From NCBI GenBank assembly GCA_964421015.1, contig CAYQUS010000002.1, positions 8,538 to 72,537 on the forward strand: DNA of 64,000 nt, read 5' to 3'. The translations under genes and the position numbers were made by a program. Of the stretch, positions 2,316-57,487 are shown in pieces (the first letter of the stretch is position 1; each line of letters starts with the position of its first letter). The notes beneath the pieces were generated by a model, which did not search any database, was not told where the DNA came from, and worked only from the letters and a program-made list of their open reading frames with translations. This stretch comes from an uncultured Planctomycetia bacterium. Its GTDB lineage: Bacteria; Omnitrophota; Gorgyraeia; Tantalellales; Tantalellaceae.

Positions 2316-2635
2316 CTTAATAAAAATCATCGAGTCCTTCGGTAACCTGCCGATCCTTTACTCTATTTCAAGGACGCACGGTTTTGCGCACCCGCCAATG
2401 CGGGATTGCCTTTTTCGGAACTTCGCGCAGTATTTTTCTACTTTAAGTATGCCACATAGGGTGGCGCTTTTCAAGTGAACCAAAGTAAAGCTGGCTTTCC
2501 CCAAGCCTATACCCTCCTCTCTTGGCTCTAAAACCCTTAAAAACAAAGAACTTTTAAAAAAATCCATTTTTTTTGAAAAAAATTTAAGGGAATAAAAAAT
2601 TTAAGAAAATTGTGTTCTCACAGATACATAGAAAA

Positions 2636-3170
2636 GCGAAGGTTCAGGTTGAGGTCAAGGTGCCTGGCAGTGAGACTGGTGTTTCATAGATTTGGCTATA
2701 GGTAAACTTAAGTACGCGAGACAGTATTTTTAAAATCCTGTCTCGCGGCCAAATCGATGAAACACCATAGTCGAACTGTCCCCGAGATAGTGAAGCTGCG
2801 GTTTCATGAGCAAAGAGAAATGAAACCGCACAGCTGAACTGCAGCGAAGGGGCACCAACGTGTCTTGGAGTAAAGGAGAAAGTAGTAAGGAGAAAAATAT
2901 CAGATCAAGGTTGAGGTTCAGGTTTAGGTTGAATTTGCCGGCAGATGCCGATGTTCCCGGAAGGGCGTTGGTCGACCGAGCGGGCACGGATCCCGAGGGC
3001 AGTGAGGCTGGTGTTTCATGATGGAATGAAACACCATGGCCGAACTGTCCCGAGGGAGAGCGAGGGAGAGCATCGAGCGAGATTTCCACGCCGGGGAAAT
3101 CGAGCGTCCCTGAAGGGAATATTGGCATCTGCCGGCAGATGCCGATGTTCCCGGAAGGGCGTTGACAGGC
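2636..3170. repeat. mosaic of nested palindromes and direct repeats (BIME-like cluster)
   Basis: Contains the perfect 10-bp stem ggtgtttcat/atgaaacacc (~3010-3040), a second copy split by a 75 nt insert (~2672-2770), and the hairpin tgcggtttcat/atgaaaccgca (~2795-2835). A 33 nt direct repeat, ccggcagatgccgatgttcccggaagggcgttg, occurs at 2938-2970 and again at 3132-3164. Long-arm REP motifs aggttcaggttgaggtcaaggtg occur at 2640 and 2906. Confidence 0.6.
3076..3135. repeat. repeat family B (gatttccacgccggggaaatcgagcgtccctgaagggaat)
   Basis: A near-identical copy occurs in inverse orientation at 12030..12100. Both contain the palindrome tccctgaaggga. The track ORFs over these copies are repeat-derived. 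Confidence 0.55.
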
Positions 3171-3177
3171 CGAGGGT

Positions 3178-3335
3178 ACGCGCAAGACCGCGGAGAGAGT
3201 GTGTTCGAGACTGGAATAATTCGCCGCCCGAAAGGGATAAAAATAAGGACACCCCCCTGAAGAGTCTGCTCCTGAAATATTAAATTAACAGGCGGATTAT
3301 GAAGAGCGCAGAATACACTCTCTTCGCGGAGAGCG
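3178..3335 (+). repeat. conserved ~150 nt element, copy 1, closed by a ~16-18 bp terminal stem; candidate structured RNA or MITE
   Basis: About 93% identical to copy 2 at 4546..4695. The 5' end cgcggagagagtgtg pairs with the 3' end cacactctcttcgcg. Confidence 0.5.
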
Positions 3336-3432
3336 GGTATCAAGATGCAAAATAAAAGCGGGAACACGCATCAAATTTACGCGTCCCCGCTTTTCTCTCA
3401 ACCTCAACCTTCTATTTTCCTCTTGCTCCTTA

Positions 3433-3485
3433 AAACCACATTGGTGACAGGCACTTCAACTCGGGGAAATACACTCCGTGCCAGT
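3433..3485. repeat. REP-like palindromic unit (ggtgacaggcac-loop-gtgccagtcacctcaacc)
   Basis: The same unit recurs at 6398..6450, 6456..6520 and, inverted, at 13281..13338. Confidence 0.6.
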
Positions 3486-3561
3486 CACCTCAACCTTTTT
3501 CTTACTCCTTACTCCTTACTACTTGCTACTTTCTACTTCCCTTCCCCTTCCCTCTTATTCC

Positions 3562-4263
3562 TTACATCCAGCTTCTCTTTGCCTTCTTTTCCGGTTTTTC
3601 AGCCTTGACCGGAACAACTTCAACAGCCTCTTCCTCAATAAGCTCCTCTCCGGAGGGGGTCTCGACAACTTCCTCTACGACCTCTTCCACTACAAGAGCT
3701 TCTCCGGCAGGGGTCTCAACAACCGCGGCCTCTTCTACTACAACTTCTTCCACTACCGCGCCTTTGCCTCTGCTCGCGAAGGTGTAGTTTTTAACTGTGC
3801 CCGCTTTGTCGTTCTTGTGTATGCTTAATACCCCGGTCATCGTTTCACTAAGGACGCCCGTTTCGGGATCTCTTCTCATGTCGCCTCTCCAGAAAGCCTG
3901 CTGGCCGTCTTCTGTGACCTGCATGGTCTCCCATGTAGCGCTGTTCTCTCTCCTTATCCTCAAGGTCAGGTTCGACGCCCCAAAACCCTGCTCCATCAGC
4001 ATCGCCGATTCCACCCTGCCCATATTCGTGAACTTTATAGTGTCGTCCACAACCTCTTTTTTGGCGTTATCCGTGCTTTCTGTTAGGGTTATTTCCCAGA
4101 GCGTGTCATTTATCTGCTTTTTGGCCGCTTCCACCATGAGAGCCCTCTTAACCGCCTCCTCCTCCGTTTCCTGAGCCATTAAGATGCTGGCCGAAAAACA
4201 AAACAAGGCCGAAGCCATTACAACTTTCACTACCTTCATCGCTTCTCTAGAGAACATGTCCAT
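3562..4263 (-). CDS. secreted protein, stand-alone copy of the W..E/ASW.G domain family (paralog 3) with an acidic tandem-repeat C-terminal tail
   Basis: Signal peptide MKVVKVVMASALFCFSASILMA (the start may be Met9 at ~4239). The domain NDTLWEITLTES...AFWRGDMRRDPETGVLSETMTGVLSI is homologous to the other two family members. The C-terminus is a low-complexity VVEEVVEEVVETP(A/S)GE repeat, encoded by a ~60 nt tandem repeat at ~3600-3760. Confidence 0.6.
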   Translation of the reverse strand: MDMFSREAMKVVKVVMASALFCFSASILMAQETEEEAVKRALMVEAAKKQINDTLWEITLTESTDNAKKEVVDDTIKFTNMGRVESAMLMEQGFGASNLTLRIRRENSATWETMQVTEDGQQAFWRGDMRRDPETGVLSETMTGVLSIHKNDKAGTVKNYTFASRGKGAVVEEVVVEEAAVVETPAGEALVVEEVVEEVVETPSGEELIEEEAVEVVPVKAEKPEKKAKRSWM

Positions 4264-4545
4264 ACCCCCTTTTTTATGATAAATCCCTTTTAAAAACCTT
4301 CCCTATTTACCTAAGTTCCTTTATTTTAGGTATTAATTATCCCATATTTTAAACTGTTTTGCAACAATGCCAGGTTATTGCGCTAATACGCTCCACCTTC
4401 CCGCACGATACCCTATCCGCGCCTCACTCAACCTTAACCCTTACTCCTTCCCTCTTTCTTCCTGCTCCACCCATATTCGACATATCCCGCTCGGAAAAAG
4501 TTCCATAAAAACACATTGGTGCCCCCTCAGCACATCGGTCTTGGA

Positions 4546-4695
4546 AAACCGCGGGGAGAGTGTGTCGAGACTGGAATAATTCGCCGCCCGAAAGGGATAA
4601 AATTAAGGACACTCCCCTGAAGAGTCTGCTCCTGAAGTATTACATTAACAGGCGGATTGTGAAGAGCGCAGAATACACTCTCTCCGCGGAAAGCG
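4546..4695 (+). repeat. conserved ~150 nt element, copy 2
   Basis: See copy 1. The terminal stem is cgcggggagagtgtg/cacactctctccgcg. Relative to copy 1 there is an a-to-g change on the 5' arm and a t-to-c change on the 3' arm. This is a compensatory A-U to G-C pair change. Confidence 0.5.
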
Positions 4696-4782
4696 ACCGT
4701 TCTAGATTCTTCGCCTTCGGCTCAGAATGACAATATTTATTCCTTCCGAACTTCCTACTTTACGCCTCTCTACGCTCTCAAT

Positions 4783-6375
4783 CTATTCCGCGACTACCGC
4801 CGCTTCAACTATCAGCACATCTTCCTTGGGCTTGTCGGAACTATCTGTCTCTACGATACTTATAGCATTAACAACGTCCATACCCCATATAACTTTTCCG
4901 AAAACGGTGTGCCTTCCGTAAAGATGTTTGGCCGGAGCTACGGTTATGAAAAACTGGCTTTTATTGGAATCCGGTCCGGAATTCGCCATGGCGAGTACCC
5001 CGGGTTCGTCGAAATTCAGACCTTCCTTTATTTCATCCACAAAAGGGCTCTCCCCCCAGAAAGATTCTCCCCCCGCTCCGGTGCCGCTGGGATCTCCCGC
5101 CTGAACCATAAAATCCTTTATTACTCTATGGAACTTTATGCCGTTATAGTATCCCTTCTCCACAAGACCGATAAAATTCTCGGCGGCCAGAGGCGCCGAT
5201 TCCGGGAAAAGCCTCAGAGCTACGTCCCCTTTAGAGGTTTTAAGGACTATAAGCGACTTTTTCTTCATACTTTCCACCTTTTCCTGCTGTCTCTTTTCCT
5301 CGACATAATCACGGAAACTGGCTCTAGAGAGAAGGTCATCGAAATATTCCTTAACGATTTTCTGTTTTTTGCCTCTTGTGAGCATTTCGCGGTAATATTC
5401 TTTTTTCTGGTCGTCATACTGCGCCATGTCGGCCCGGCGCGTATTAAGAAGCCTGACAACAACGGGGCCGTAATAGTTGTGGGCCGCCATAAAGGTTCCT
5501 GGTTCGCTCTCGACTATAGTGTACGCCTCGTCTTTTGGTATTTTCCACAGGTCGATAAGGGCCTCGAGCGTCATGCTGTTTATCCACGAAGCCCCTTTCT
5601 GCCCCAGGTCTTTCTTCGCCTCATAAGTGTCCCACCAGAGGCGCGGGTTATCACGCACTTTATCCTGAAACTCCCTCGCGGCCTCGTCAGTCGCAAAAAG
5701 TATGTACTCGCTCTCGAAAGAATTGTACTGGTTGAGGAATTTCTGCAGCATCTCGTCTTCCGTGACTACGACCTCGGGATTGGCCTTTATGCTGAGGAAC
5801 TTATTGACCGTAAGAAGGTCCTTTATCCGCCCCTCAAAAACTTCCGCGCTTTCGTTGAAAGTTTTCGGCACCCATTCCTTGTACTCGGCTGAACCGTACT
5901 CCAACCCCTGTTCTTTAACAAGCCTCTTAAGCTCCGTCTCCAGTTCTTCGCGGGTTATCTCTATTCCTATAGCCTTGGCCTCTATCCCGTATATAAGGTT
6001 CTGCCATGCCTCTATTCTTCTGGCATCCTCTCTGAGCTGCTCATTAAGCCCCTCCACTTCTTTTGCCATTCTTGTGAACATCGAAGCAGTTTTATACTGG
6101 TAAAGAAATTCCTGCGGTGTGACCGGGCGGTGAAAAACCTCTCCCACGGCCCCGGGCATCATGGGGCCCGGCGTTACCTTGGCCTCATCTTTAGGTTCGT
6201 CTGATCCCTCCTCGGCGGAACTTGTTTTTTCCTGGGCCTTTGATGCCTCTGCCGATTTTTGTTCGGCGGTAACTTCCTTAGTTTCCTGGGATACCTTAGA
6301 AGCCTCACGGGCGCATCCGTACGGCGCGCATGTTATCATCATTACGGCCAAGAGATATCCTAAAAATTTTTTCAT
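4783..6375 (-). CDS. periplasmic peptidyl-prolyl cis-trans isomerase, cyclophilin type, with an N-terminal SurA/PpiD-like chaperone region
   Basis: The C-terminal ~170 aa is a cyclophilin domain (FHRVIKDFMVQAGDP...GESFWG...QFFIT...HTVFGKV). The N-terminus has a signal or lipoprotein peptide. Confidence 0.8.
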   Translation of the reverse strand: MKKFLGYLLAVMMITCAPYGCAREASKVSQETKEVTAEQKSAEASKAQEKTSSAEEGSDEPKDEAKVTPGPMMPGAVGEVFHRPVTPQEFLYQYKTASMFTRMAKEVEGLNEQLREDARRIEAWQNLIYGIEAKAIGIEITREELETELKRLVKEQGLEYGSAEYKEWVPKTFNESAEVFEGRIKDLLTVNKFLSIKANPEVVVTEDEMLQKFLNQYNSFESEYILFATDEAAREFQDKVRDNPRLWWDTYEAKKDLGQKGASWINSMTLEALIDLWKIPKDEAYTIVESEPGTFMAAHNYYGPVVVRLLNTRRADMAQYDDQKKEYYREMLTRGKKQKIVKEYFDDLLSRASFRDYVEEKRQQEKVESMKKKSLIVLKTSKGDVALRLFPESAPLAAENFIGLVEKGYYNGIKFHRVIKDFMVQAGDPSGTGAGGESFWGESPFVDEIKEGLNFDEPGVLAMANSGPDSNKSQFFITVAPAKHLYGRHTVFGKVIWGMDVVNAISIVETDSSDKPKEDVLIVEAAVVAE

Positions 6376-6397
6376 TTCACCCTCCTAAAGACACATT

Positions 6398-6520
6398 GGT
6401 GACAGGCACTTCAATTCGGGAAATACGATCTGTGCCAGTCACCTAAACCTGCATCGATGACAGGCACTTCAACTCGGGAAATACGATCTGTGCCAGTCAC
6501 CTCGACCTTAACCTGAACCT
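6398..6520. repeat. two tandem REP-like palindromic units
   Basis: gacaggcacttcaaytcgggaaatacgatctgtgccagtcacct occurs twice. The second copy continues into the long arm cacctcgaccttaacctgaacct. Confidence 0.6.
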
Positions 6521-6534
6521 GCGGTCTTGCTACC

Positions 6535-10119: not shown

Positions 10120-10820
10120 TTAAGCTCCACGGTGTCTTCCCCGTACCGCAATACCACCCTGTCTTTCAGTATCTGCTCGACCTTTACCTCTCCTATCATC
10201 TGTCCTTCTCTTACGAAAAAAGTCCTGAACGCTTTTGAGTCCTCTATCAGCGCGTCGGGCTTTTCCGACCAGGATATGCCTACAAGCCTGAGGTCCTGCG
10301 TCATCTCGGTTATGGCCGGTACCGGGCTGTATCTGGTCTCCCTTTCCACCGGAACCTCGGGTTCGGGTTCCGGGGCCTTGTATCCCATGCGGAAAATGTT
10401 CCGTTCCGCGGTCTTTTTCAGATAGTATTCCTCTCCTTTGTCGTCCGAAAAAGGTTTTGCGGAGAAATCAAACCCGCTTTTCTCGTACCGCCTGGCCTCC
10501 AGATCCTCCATCCTGTCCGAATAGTTCAAAAGATAAGAAAAATCTGCGATAGCGTAAGAGGCCGCCAGAAGCGCCCCGAAAAAAAGAAACCTGTTTATCA
10601 GGTTCTTTTCCGCGAGCCGCTTAAGCCCCGCGGGGCTGAAAACCTTCTTAAGGTTCCCCGTTAAAAAAAAAAACCTTTCCCTCAGGACGGCCGCCGAAAA
10701 AAGCGGCGACGAGCCCCTCCGGACCGCTCTAGCCCTCATTTTTAACTCATTCGGCCCTTCCGGGTTCTCTATAAGGCTTAACAGCTGTTTTTCTGAGGTA
10801 ATAGGCTTTCTCTGTACCAT
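10116..10820 (-). CDS. bitopic membrane protein, possible GspC/PilP-like secretin partner
   Basis: Single TM segment (FLFFGALLAASYAIADFSYLL) and a periplasmic beta-rich C-terminus. Position between the ExeA-like ATPase gene and the secretin gene. Its end overlaps the secretin start by 4 nt. The start may be Met28 (~10739). Confidence 0.45.
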   Translation of the reverse strand: MVQRKPITSEKQLLSLIENPEGPNELKMRARAVRRGSSPLFSAAVLRERFFFLTGNLKKVFSPAGLKRLAEKNLINRFLFFGALLAASYAIADFSYLLNYSDRMEDLEARRYEKSGFDFSAKPFSDDKGEEYYLKKTAERNIFRMGYKAPEPEPEVPVERETRYSPVPAITEMTQDLRLVGISWSEKPDALIEDSKAFRTFFVREGQMIGEVKVEQILKDRVVLRYGEDTVELK

Positions 10821-12029: not shown

Positions 12030-12100
12030 GGCATTCCATCATTTCCTTCAGGGACGCTCGATTTGCCCAGCGTGGAAATCTTCACTCGGTGCTCTCCCTC
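12030..12100. repeat. repeat family B copy, inverse orientation
   Basis: The reverse complement matches 3076..3135 (gatttccacgc.gggcaaatcgagcgtccctgaagg.aat). Confidence 0.55.
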
Positions 12101-12169
12101 GCTTTATCACGCGGCTGGCGTACGCCTTGACTCCGAGCTTCGGGGCATGGTACACTTCCGTGAAAGGCG

Positions 12170-12730: not shown

Positions 12731-12829
12731 CAAGCCGGCATTAAACCCCTGATTGACTTAGCCATTCACGGTTGTTATAATGTGTGGGGTTTTATCCGGG
12801 ATTTTACAGAAAAACCGGCAATCAGGACC

Positions 12830-13280: not shown

Positions 13281-13338
13281 GAGGTCGAGGTGACTGGCAA
13301 CACCATCGCTTTTTAATTGTAAGGTGGTGCCTGTCACC
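13281..13338. repeat. REP-like palindromic unit, inverted copy, between tRNA-Arg and tRNA-His
   Basis: gaggtcgaggtgactggca-loop-ggtggtgcctgtcacc. Confidence 0.55.
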
Positions 13339-13369
13339 AAAGTGTCTGTATCTGTAGATGTACATCGGT

Positions 13370-55211: not shown

Positions 55212-55241
55212 AAAAACAGGGGCCGGAACGAGTCCGGCCCC
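55212..55241 (-). terminator. Rho-independent terminator downstream of pheT
   Basis: On the minus strand: ggggccgga-ctcgt-tccggcccc followed by tgttttt. Confidence 0.55.
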
Positions 55242-55450
55242 CGGACCATCGTGCCGTCCGCAAGAAAGAGAATTTTAGACCTGGTAATCCAGGTGGGTGC
55301 CCTCCCGCATGCCTCGAAAGGCGAGCGAAGTTAGGCTCCCGGGTCGTAAGTGTTGGTCAAATTCTCTGTTCCAGGTCACGCGCACAACAGAGCATTAATG
55401 ACTGTGTTATCTATCTTCCGGACAAAATACCGTCCCGGATAGACCGTTCT

Positions 55451-57487
55451 TTACCTAAAACTTACGGCAAGTTTTACGGAAAGTTCGCTTTTTACCGCCG
55501 AATGGGCCGCCTCTACTTCCTGGTCGGTAAGCGTCCTGTCGGCAACCCCGTAAGTTATCCTGAAACTCACGCTTTTCTTCCCGTCCGGGATCTGTTTGCC
55601 CTCGTACATATCAGTTATTTCAACTTCTCTGGCAAGCCCTTTCGCGCTTTCCGTTATAACTTCCTTTATGTCCGCGGCCCTGGTCTTTTTTTCGCACAAT
55701 ACGGAAACATCCCTTGAAGAGAAGGGGAACCTGGGCACGGGAGAATAGGCTCCTTTTAAAACGGCTTTGCCTAGAAATTCCGTAAGCTCTATTTCCGCGA
55801 CGAACACTCTCTGGTTTATTCCGTAAACGCCGAGTTTCTCCGCGGCGACTTCGCCGATAAATCCTGTTTGTGTCCCTTGGGCAAGAATGGCGGCCGCGTT
55901 GGTAAATCCGTCAGTTTCTCTGGGCTCAAAACAAATGCCGACCCTGAGATGTTCCGCCAGGTTCTCGATAACTCCCTTAAGCCTGTATATGTCGGCTTTT
56001 CTCTCTCCTTCCGCCCAGCTCCTGGAAGCAAGCCCTGTCATTCCCACGCAAAGCACCGGTTTTTCCGCAAAACCCGTACCGTCCTGGTTTCTTGTGTATC
56101 TCTTGCCGGATTCGAACAGCATAAGGTCCCGGTTGCCTCTATTGAGGTTCCACACCATTGCCTTCATCATGCCGTCAACAAGATGCGGTGTAAGCATCTC
56201 CTGTTCCGCGGATAGGGGATTTTTTATTCTGACCTCGTTCTTTACAAGCTCCGGGAAATTATAAGCCGCTTTCTGGCTTATCATACTGTAGGTCATTATC
56301 TCATTAAGCCCCATCGCCGCAAGAAGCCTTTTGACCTTTTCCAAAGCCATCCTGTCCCGGGTTTTTCTCTCTCTCCACGGCGCCGGCACCGGTACCGTCT
56401 CGGATATACGATGGTAACCGTATATCCTGGCTATCTCTTCTATAATGTCTATCTCCCTGGAAACGTCTTCTCTGAAACTCGGCACCTTCACTTTCATTTT
56501 GCCGCCCGACAGAACGGACACTCCCATTCCAAGGCTTTCAAGTATCCTCTTAGCCGTCTCTCCGTCAAGCGGAAGGCCGAGTACTGCGGCGGCCCTCGCC
56601 GTGTCGATTTCTATTTCTTTTTCGTCTCCGCCGTAAGACCCAGAATCATAGATCTCTCCAGGGATCCCTCCCGCGTGCTCAAGTATAAGACCTGCCGCCC
56701 TCGCGGAAGCCTTTATGACCCATCCCTTGTCCACTCCTCTTTCGAAACGGTAGCTGGAATCCGTCGAGATCCCGAGGGCTCTGGAAGTCCTGCGGACAGA
56801 AACGGGATCGAAATAGGCGCTTTCGAGAAGGATATTTCTGGTGTTCCCGGTCACCTCGGTATCTTTCCCTCCCATGACCCCCGCTACGGCGATGGGTCTT
56901 TCCGCGTCGGCAATGACCAGCATATTTTCCGCCAGCTCTCTTTCTTCCCCGTCGATCGTGACGATCTTTTCGCCTTTACGGGCCGTCCTTACTTCTACTC
57001 TTGCGCCTTTTATCTTGTCGAGATCAAAAGCGTGGAGAGGCTGTCCCGTCTCCATGAGACAGAAATTGGTTATATCGACCACGTTGTTTACTTTCCTCAT
57101 CCCCAAGGCCTCTAATCTGTCGGATATTTTACCGGCAATATCCTTCACATTCACTCCCTCGATTATCCTGGCGGTATATCTCGGGCAAAGTTCCGGAGCC
57201 TTTATATCGCACCTTACCGAAAGCCTCGCTTTTCCCTCTTTCGGAAGATCTTTCGGGAAGGGTATCGAGATTTTAGCTCCGGCAACAGCCGCCGCTTCCC
57301 GCGCGAGGCCTATCATGTTAAGGCAGTCGGGACGGTTTGACGTTATCTCTAGCTCCATTACCGTATCGCCTTTCACCTTAGAGCATGAGCCGACCTCGGA
57401 TCCGCTCATGGTAAGTTTCTCGGCAAGAGCTTCCGGCCCCTCTTTTATATCCGCGTAGTCCTTTATCCAGTTATAACTGAGTTTCAT
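55451..57487 (-). CDS. pheT: phenylalanine--tRNA ligase beta subunit (short form, lacks the N-terminal tRNA-binding domain)
   Basis: B3/B4, B5 and FDX-ACB domains are recognisable. It follows pheS directly. Confidence 0.85.
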   Translation of the reverse strand: MKLSYNWIKDYADIKEGPEALAEKLTMSGSEVGSCSKVKGDTVMELEITSNRPDCLNMIGLAREAAAVAGAKISIPFPKDLPKEGKARLSVRCDIKAPELCPRYTARIIEGVNVKDIAGKISDRLEALGMRKVNNVVDITNFCLMETGQPLHAFDLDKIKGARVEVRTARKGEKIVTIDGEERELAENMLVIADAERPIAVAGVMGGKDTEVTGNTRNILLESAYFDPVSVRRTSRALGISTDSSYRFERGVDKGWVIKASARAAGLILEHAGGIPGEIYDSGSYGGDEKEIEIDTARAAAVLGLPLDGETAKRILESLGMGVSVLSGGKMKVKVPSFREDVSREIDIIEEIARIYGYHRISETVPVPAPWRERKTRDRMALEKVKRLLAAMGLNEIMTYSMISQKAAYNFPELVKNEVRIKNPLSAEQEMLTPHLVDGMMKAMVWNLNRGNRDLMLFESGKRYTRNQDGTGFAEKPVLCVGMTGLASRSWAEGERKADIYRLKGVIENLAEHLRVGICFEPRETDGFTNAAAILAQGTQTGFIGEVAAEKLGVYGINQRVFVAEIELTEFLGKAVLKGAYSPVPRFPFSSRDVSVLCEKKTRAADIKEVITESAKGLAREVEITDMYEGKQIPDGKKSVSFRITYGVADRTLTDQEVEAAHSAVKSELSVKLAVSFR

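Follow-up and report, generated by a model that had tools for sequence, protein, structure and literature searches.

What kind of element is a non-coding sequence of about 150 nt that occurs twice within a short distance and whose two ends are complementary to each other? The question is raised by a 64-kb stretch of DNA (the window), housekeeping chromosomal DNA of an uncultured Candidatus Omnitrophota bacterium. An earlier note on this DNA had proposed either a structured RNA or a hairpin-ended MITE (a small non-autonomous DNA transposon), and had seen in a compensatory base change within the stem the signature of selection on structure. The reading that we prefer, at a probability of roughly one half, is a new low-copy MITE-like element.

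Results

Two intergenic copies of a non-coding repeat

By blastn the two direct copies (3184-3335 and 4545-4695) are 93.4% identical over 152 nt, which agrees with the earlier note, where they had been described as about 93% identical, in the same orientation and each located in an intergenic region downstream of a minus-strand gene. Copy 1 lies ~225 nt downstream of the gene for a 233-aa protein, which sits between the two copies, and copy 2 lies 1.2 kb away from copy 1 and ~90 nt downstream of a PPIase gene whose best homologues are Omnitrophota proteins with at most 64% identity (Table 1). The similarity between the copies starts 2-3 nt before the left inverted repeat and stops ~6 nt past the right one, the flanks being otherwise unrelated. 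Seven substitutions distinguish the cores, five of them at an A of copy 1; the differences also include C-to-T and T-to-C changes and one indel.

No frame combines a start codon with an open frame conserved in both copies. Of the small ORFs within the element, some are broken in one copy and the others extend past the repeat, for which reason we rejected a small coding ORF. The short ORF after an AGGCGGA motif that had been pointed out in copy 1 is present (MKSAEYTLFAESGYQDAK) and encodes a hydrophilic peptide of 18 aa. In copy 2 its start codon is GUG and the frame departs from that of copy 1 at the repeat end, and the peptide is indeed not conserved, as had been said.

Table 1. Position of the repeat, its parts and the surrounding features (window coordinates unless a relative is named)
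Feature	Position	Strand	Remarks
Copy 1 core	3188-3329	+	142 bp, bounded by the terminal inverted repeat; covariance model R1, 194.9 bits
Copy 1 left terminal inverted repeat, CCGCGGAGAGAGTGTGTTC	3188-3206	+	0 mismatches to query arm; part of closing stem
Copy 1 right terminal inverted repeat, CCGCGAAGAGAGTGTATTC (minus-strand reading)	3311-3329	-	2 mismatches, both G-U on the plus strand
Copy 1 left flank AGA, candidate target-site duplication	3185-3187		...gcgcaAGA/CCGCGG
Copy 1 right flank AGA, candidate target-site duplication	3330-3332		CGCGG/AGAgcgggt
Copy 2 core	4549-4689	+	141 bp; covariance model R1, 189.9 bits
Copy 2 left terminal inverted repeat, CCGCGGGGAGAGTGTGTCG	4549-4567	+	3 mismatches; 1-nt deletion touches last bases
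Copy 2 right terminal inverted repeat, CCGCGGAGAGAGTGTATTC (minus-strand reading)	4671-4689	-	1 mismatch
Copy 2 left flank AAA, candidate target-site duplication	4546-4548		ggtcttggaAAA/CCGCGG
Copy 2 right flank AAA, candidate target-site duplication	4690-4692		CCGCGG/AAAgcgaccg
Promoter-like TTAACA-18-CAGAAT, copy 1	3285-3314	+	weak
Promoter-like TTAACA-18-CAGAAT, copy 2	4645-4674	+	weak
Terminator hairpin with T-run	3354-3394		strong, bidirectional
Terminator-like hairpin with T-tail	4533-4519
192-aa protein gene	438-1016	-
436-aa Y1_Tnp fusion gene	976-2286	-
c-di-GMP-I riboswitch	2338-2420	-	upstream of gene 976-2286
233-aa protein gene	3562-4263	-
PPIase gene	4783-6375	-	stop codon at 4783
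c-di-GMP-I riboswitch, L014	11070-11185
c-di-GMP-I riboswitch, L015	1136-1215
c-di-GMP-I riboswitch, L016	11035-11155
c-di-GMP-I riboswitch, L017	4171-4256
Hairpin repeats of ~58-70 nt	3426-3497, 6382-6450, 6444-6509
Hairpin repeat of the same family	~13283-13340		opposite strand to the other three
Short repeat pair	3059-3128 and 12033-12103		inverted
Short repeat pair	2933-2970 and 3127-3164
Short repeat pair	2637-2669 and 6491-6523		inverted
Short repeat pair	2757-2782 and 3026-3051
Short repeat pair	2872-2917 and 3487-3532		inverted
Palindrome, GATTCTTCGCCTTCGGCTCAGAATGACA	4703-4731
Hairpin in L014	~10718-10760		downstream of 233-aa homologue
ORF of 2073 aa	14978-21199
6S RNA	55239-55396	-	54 bits, above the Rfam gathering score
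pheT-like gene	55451-57487

The ends of the repeat

The arms measure 19 bp, with 2-3 mismatches, and the four listed in Table 1 are the only sites in the window within three mismatches of the query arm, with 0.02 expected by chance. The inverted repeat ends in CCGCGG at both termini; one base further out, A faces A and no pair can form. Directly outside it, copy 1 is flanked on both sides by AGA and copy 2 on both sides by AAA, so that the search for target-site duplications, which had been suggested as a test for a MITE, gave a positive answer at both copies. The G/A difference between the copies is thus correlated in the manner of a direct repeat: two of the differences are one and the same change in either unit of the 3 bp, which is what one would expect from independent insertions with a 3-bp target-site duplication. 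Equal 3-mers at such a spacing occur at 1.7% of window positions (0.017 per site), which amounts to ~3e-4 for both copies, for a duplication that is short and was spotted post hoc. After the flanking 3-mer both right flanks read GCG and before the left 3-mer both have an A; given these shared bases (A-ARA ... ARA-GCG), the repeat unit may extend slightly past the inverted repeat. A search of the window and the loci for a reconstructed empty site gave no match; the relatives are too divergent for a comparison at the level of single bases (PPIase at most 64% identical).

Folding and substitutions in the stem

The plus strands of copies 1 and 2 fold at -57 and -56 kcal/mol (z = -6.1 and -5.3). 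The 5' end had been predicted to pair with the 3' end over ~16-18 bp, and the closing helix that we obtain is in fact of 19 bp in copy 1 and 18 bp in copy 2; the fold further comprises a nested inner helix of 10 bp (AAUAAUUCGC / GCGGAUUAU) and a CCC-GAAA-GGG hairpin. The minus strand keeps the closing helix and folds more weakly, at -49 and -46 kcal/mol (z = -4.0 and -2.5). With the terminal stem removed, the z of the interior 105 nt against shuffled sequence rises to -0.86 and -0.34 for the plus strands and to about 0 for the minus strands, and for the inner 67 nt it is +0.4. Since z comes close to 0 once the terminal stem is taken away, the entire excess of the folding signal is that of the terminal inverted repeat.

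The compensatory exchange of A-U for G-C that had been reported does not exist. The a-to-g change on the 5' arm and the t-to-c change on the 3' arm do not face each other but fall into adjacent pairs, with pair 10:139 going from A-U to G-U and pair 9:140 from G-U to G-C, and a third change in the stems converts a U-A pair of the inner helix to U-G. Over 40 pairs predicted by RNAalifold there are no double-sided changes and three one-sided ones, in a covariation test that rests on two sequences and has nearly no statistical power. All three substitutions remain paired on the plus strand and produce C-A mismatches on the minus strand. In simulations, three random stem substitutions all pair on the plus strand with p = 0.02-0.10, according to the transition fraction. 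This retention of plus-strand pairing is not predicted by a purely DNA-level element, and the G-U-preserving changes constitute weak evidence for selection on structure, a hint but no signature. The stronger statement, that the repeat bears the signature of selection on structure, fails: neither double-sided covariation, nor stability in excess of the terminal helix, nor a match to a curated family in Rfam, nor a homologue in four relatives was found, by which a conserved structured non-coding RNA would be recognized.

Transcription signals around the two copies

No canonical promoter was seen on the plus strand upstream of copy 1 or copy 2, in a genome that has canonical sigma-70 promoters such as the TTGACT-17-TATAAT ahead of the tRNA at 12829. 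A weak promoter-like sequence, the same in both copies, points outward from the right end of the element; if it is active in copy 2, it would give rise to transcripts antisense to the PPIase gene at its 3' end. Located 25 nt past copy 1 is a strong terminator hairpin, bidirectional and with a T-run, which also serves the convergent 233-aa gene; nothing comparable is present at copy 2. Copy 1 is situated beyond the terminator of the 233-aa gene and therefore outside its mRNA. Copy 2 comes after the PPIase stop codon and before a hairpin that resembles a terminator and has a T-tail, and so is probably within the 3' UTR of the PPIase gene, where it is presumably co-transcribed on the minus strand and would form a long hairpin.

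Search for further copies and for mobility genes

The earlier note had counted an Rfam assignment to a known terminator or riboswitch class as evidence against its reading; Rfam 15 returned no family on the element, whether at the gathering score or at E <= 10. The covariance model R1, built from copies 1 and 2, found no third copy in the 64-kb window or in the loci L014-L017 with filters switched off, and nothing in the loci L009-L013 with default filters; nor did nhmmer and blastn detect a further copy in any of the 17 loci. The pattern GAGACTGG-N10-14-CCCGAAAGGGAT had no match in the GTDB species genomes and eight in JGI metagenomes, all due to chance as they share no similarity outside the pattern, while pattern scans of viral contigs (IMG/VR) had none. 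BLAST searches yielded only a 35-nt chance match inside mobA among plasmids and nothing among phages. The concatenated six-frame translation, used to catch spurious ORFs over other copies, matched none of 5.8 billion protein clusters. Among window ORFs of at least 200 aa, apart from the 2073-aa ORF, there is no DDE transposase, reverse transcriptase or integrase, and the sole transposase-like gene is a conserved Y1 fusion. A literature search on MITEs or RNAs of Omnitrophota retrieved nothing relevant.

Relatives and gene neighbourhood

Four Omnitrophota relatives, L014 (GCA_024277375.1), L015, L016 (GCA_043822885.1) and L017, were retrieved through homologues of the 233-aa protein. All four keep the gene order 233-aa homologue, Y1_Tnp fusion, small protein, with a giant protein next where the contig extends. 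From the 233-aa homologue to the Y1_Tnp gene, the spacer measures 89-721 nt in the relatives versus 1275 nt here. With covariance model R1 the element was not found at the syntenic spacers of the four relatives, and the PPIase loci of the closest relatives (L010-L013) are also devoid of it, the PPIase gene running straight into the next gene. Being missing from relatives with the same gene order, the element is a lineage-specific addition to these spacers.

The Y1_Tnp-domain gene lies 900 nt from copy 1. It encodes a 436-aa protein with an N-terminal IS200-like Y1 transposase domain, in which the HUH motif is present, and a C-terminal domain in common with the neighbouring small protein. The latter (192 aa) has a signal-peptide-like N-terminus and is paralogous to the C-terminal ~120 aa of the fusion (34% identity, E = 1e-20). 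A likeness of the 233-aa protein to this region is visible by eye only and insignificant by BLASTP (E = 1.0), and no Pfam family was found for the 192-aa protein, the 233-aa protein or the C-terminal region of the fusion. A c-di-GMP-I riboswitch is present inside the cluster in all four relatives, upstream of the Y1_Tnp gene in three and after it in L017. The pairing of riboswitch and fusion, beside a secretin/TPR cluster and, in two relatives, a giant protein of ~3000 aa, thus recurs in 4/4 relatives. The fusion looks like a domesticated transposase-like gene under second-messenger control; we found no description of this combination in the literature.

Other repeats in the window

Further families of short repeats, which have partners in other parts of the window, make up a mosaic in the 1.3-kb spacer from the 233-aa gene to the riboswitch (Table 1). 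Another family in the window, of ~58-70 nt (GGTGACAGGCAC...GTGCCAGTCACC), forms hairpins that are often flanked by runs of GGTTGA-type hexamers and by purine-rich AAGGAG tracts, and two of its members stand in tandem between a 173-aa gene and the PPIase start. Each hairpin is followed on the minus strand by CCAAUGUG and a U-rich stretch, and these repeats may therefore be REP-like terminators downstream of minus-strand genes. Right after copy 2 there is a palindrome of the widespread CATTCTGAGC...GAAGAATC type, and a similar hairpin (catcctgagcgagg...cgaaggatc) occurs downstream of the 233-aa homologue in L014. Elsewhere in the window, a 6S RNA is located just downstream of a pheT-like gene.

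Discussion

Of the two possibilities raised for this repeat at the outset, the hairpin-ended MITE has gained from the flanking 3-mers (~3e-4 for both copies), while the argument for a structured RNA from selection on structure has fallen with the finding of 0/40 pairs changed on both sides. Several traits of a MITE are present: cores of 142 and 141 bp devoid of coding capacity, terminal inverted repeats and flanking 3-mers that are specific to each copy. The surrounding spacers, with their mosaic of small repeats and palindromes, are also typical of regions that gather such elements.

On the assumption that the repeat is a MITE-like element, it would be a ~142 bp core without coding capacity, whose terminal inverted repeats (CCGCGGRGAGAGTGTG...) are 19 bp long and imperfect. 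Somewhere else in the genome, a full-length insertion sequence that shares these ends would encode the transposase, which would bind both inverted repeats, excise or copy the element and place it at a staggered cut of 3 bp in intergenic DNA rich in A. Insertion at such a cut would leave the flanking duplications AGA at copy 1 and AAA at copy 2. The status of these flanks as target-site duplications is putative, as is the cognate transposase. The inverted repeats would account for the 'stem-closed' RNA fold as a by-product. Several observations count against such an element. Only two copies are known, 1.2 kb apart, with none in the other 60 kb or in the public collections searched; the window ORFs scanned contain no autonomous element or DDE transposase; no empty site was found; there is a nested 10-bp inner stem; and the pairing retained by the stem substitutions is not what a purely DNA-level element predicts.

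A first alternative is that the copies are two paralogous, lineage-specific small-RNA genes of ~150 nt on the plus strand, whose ends form the long closing helix. The inner helix would enclose a mostly unpaired loop with a stretch rich in C (CACCCCCCUG / CACUCCCCUG), a possible pairing partner of purine-rich ribosome-binding regions. The plus strand does fold better than the minus strand, the stem substitutions give G-U pairs on the former and C-A mismatches on the latter, and copy 1 is followed by a strong terminator. However, this terminator also belongs to the convergent 233-aa gene and is without a counterpart at copy 2, the sequences upstream of the two copies are unrelated and lack a promoter-like site on the plus strand, and neither excess interior structure, double-sided covariation, an Rfam family nor a homologue at the syntenic sites of the four relatives speaks for an RNA. 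Moreover, the repeat unit would need to have been copied exactly from helix end to helix end, and the copy-specific direct flanks would be left unexplained. We consider such a pair of genes unlikely. That the element is, or has become, a functional plus-strand RNA of this Omnitrophota lineage, represented by two copies with a 19-bp end helix pairable through G-U and an exposed C-rich loop, seems to us quite doubtful; it may in that case be derived from a MITE, a mobile hairpin doubling as a regulatory RNA gene.

The two copies lie a short distance apart in spacers dense with other short repeats and palindromes, and could also have arisen when a palindromic segment of the spacer was duplicated locally, through template switching or through illegitimate recombination at the hairpin. 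The repeat would then be passive DNA comparable to REP/BIME-like intergenic palindromes, with neither a transposase nor an RNA function. The failure to find another copy in any collection searched is compatible with such an event, and so are the extra bases shared by the flanks, if the duplicated unit was slightly larger than the inverted repeat. Yet the boundaries of the unit match the inverted repeat, and the correlated difference of the flanking 3-mers would need two parallel G/A changes at equivalent positions. In our view a passive duplication is improbable. Finally, the location of both copies downstream of minus-strand genes, together with a closing helix that still forms on the minus strand, might point to a cis-acting hairpin in the 3' regions of these genes, for protection of the mRNA 3' end, as an RNase III site or as an aid to termination. 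This would suit copy 2, which is probably within the PPIase 3' UTR, but not copy 1, which is separated from its upstream gene by that gene's terminator. The C-A mismatches on the minus strand and the absence of the element downstream of the orthologous genes in relatives also argue against a cis-acting hairpin, and we hold it to be very unlikely.

If the MITE-like nature of the repeat is confirmed, it would represent a MITE family not described before, in an uncultured phylum (Omnitrophota) for which there is hardly any catalogue of mobile elements. Direct repeats of ~150 bp around a gene for a secreted protein could drive its deletion or amplification by recombination. Beyond this, the repeat is a routine genome feature. 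The case also illustrates that terminal inverted repeats may pass for a structured RNA that shows covariation.

Comparison with known systems

The repeat was compared with several known systems. The attC sites of integrons were rejected for lack of a GTTRRRY/RYYYAAC core at either end on either strand; no integrase was found among the scanned ORFs of at least 200 aa, and the adjacent genes are conserved chromosomal genes and no cassettes. The same set of ORFs yielded no reverse transcriptase, which led us to reject a retron and also a DGR. In the latter case both copies are in addition non-coding, and the differences between them comprise C-to-T and T-to-C changes and an indel besides the changes at A (5/7 core substitutions).

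The QUAD/Sib sequences of E. coli are repeated small-RNA genes belonging to type I toxin-antitoxin systems, and our repeat is like them in consisting of ~140-150 nt intergenic units that lie near each other in the same orientation with a tiny ORF inside. It is unlike them in that no small hydrophobic ORF is conserved on either strand and no promoter is conserved with the repeat. A type I toxin-antitoxin system was rejected, given that the 18-aa ORF is hydrophilic and diverges at the repeat end.

With REP and REPIN sequences the element shares an intergenic location, palindromic features and the proximity of a Y1_Tnp gene. However, REPs are 20-40 nt long and REPINs are near-perfect hairpins over their full length without target-site duplications, whereas the interior of the present element is non-palindromic and 3-bp repeats flank it. 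Unlike the RAYT (Y1/HUH) proteins that mobilize REP/REPIN sequences, the Y1_Tnp gene here is a conserved riboswitch-associated fusion and is found in four relatives that do not have the element. A REP/REPIN-RAYT system was rejected on these grounds.

The repeat also resembles the Correia elements of Neisseria, RUP of Streptococcus pneumoniae and ERIC of enterobacteria. These bacterial MITEs are non-coding intergenic sequences of ~100-160 bp with terminal inverted repeats and short flanking target-site duplications, and they form a long hairpin once transcribed. They are dispersed in tens to hundreds of copies, usually with TA duplications, and for some, such as RUP, the parent insertion sequence has been identified. 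The present repeat differs from them in its two adjacent copies, its 3-bp (ARA) duplication, the lack of a parent element among the sequences searched and the absence of sequence similarity to known families. It is like them in its size, its non-coding intergenic site, its terminal inverted repeats, its short flanking repeats and its long hairpin, and the weak outward-facing TTAACA-18-CAGAAT recalls the promoters that Correia elements carry.
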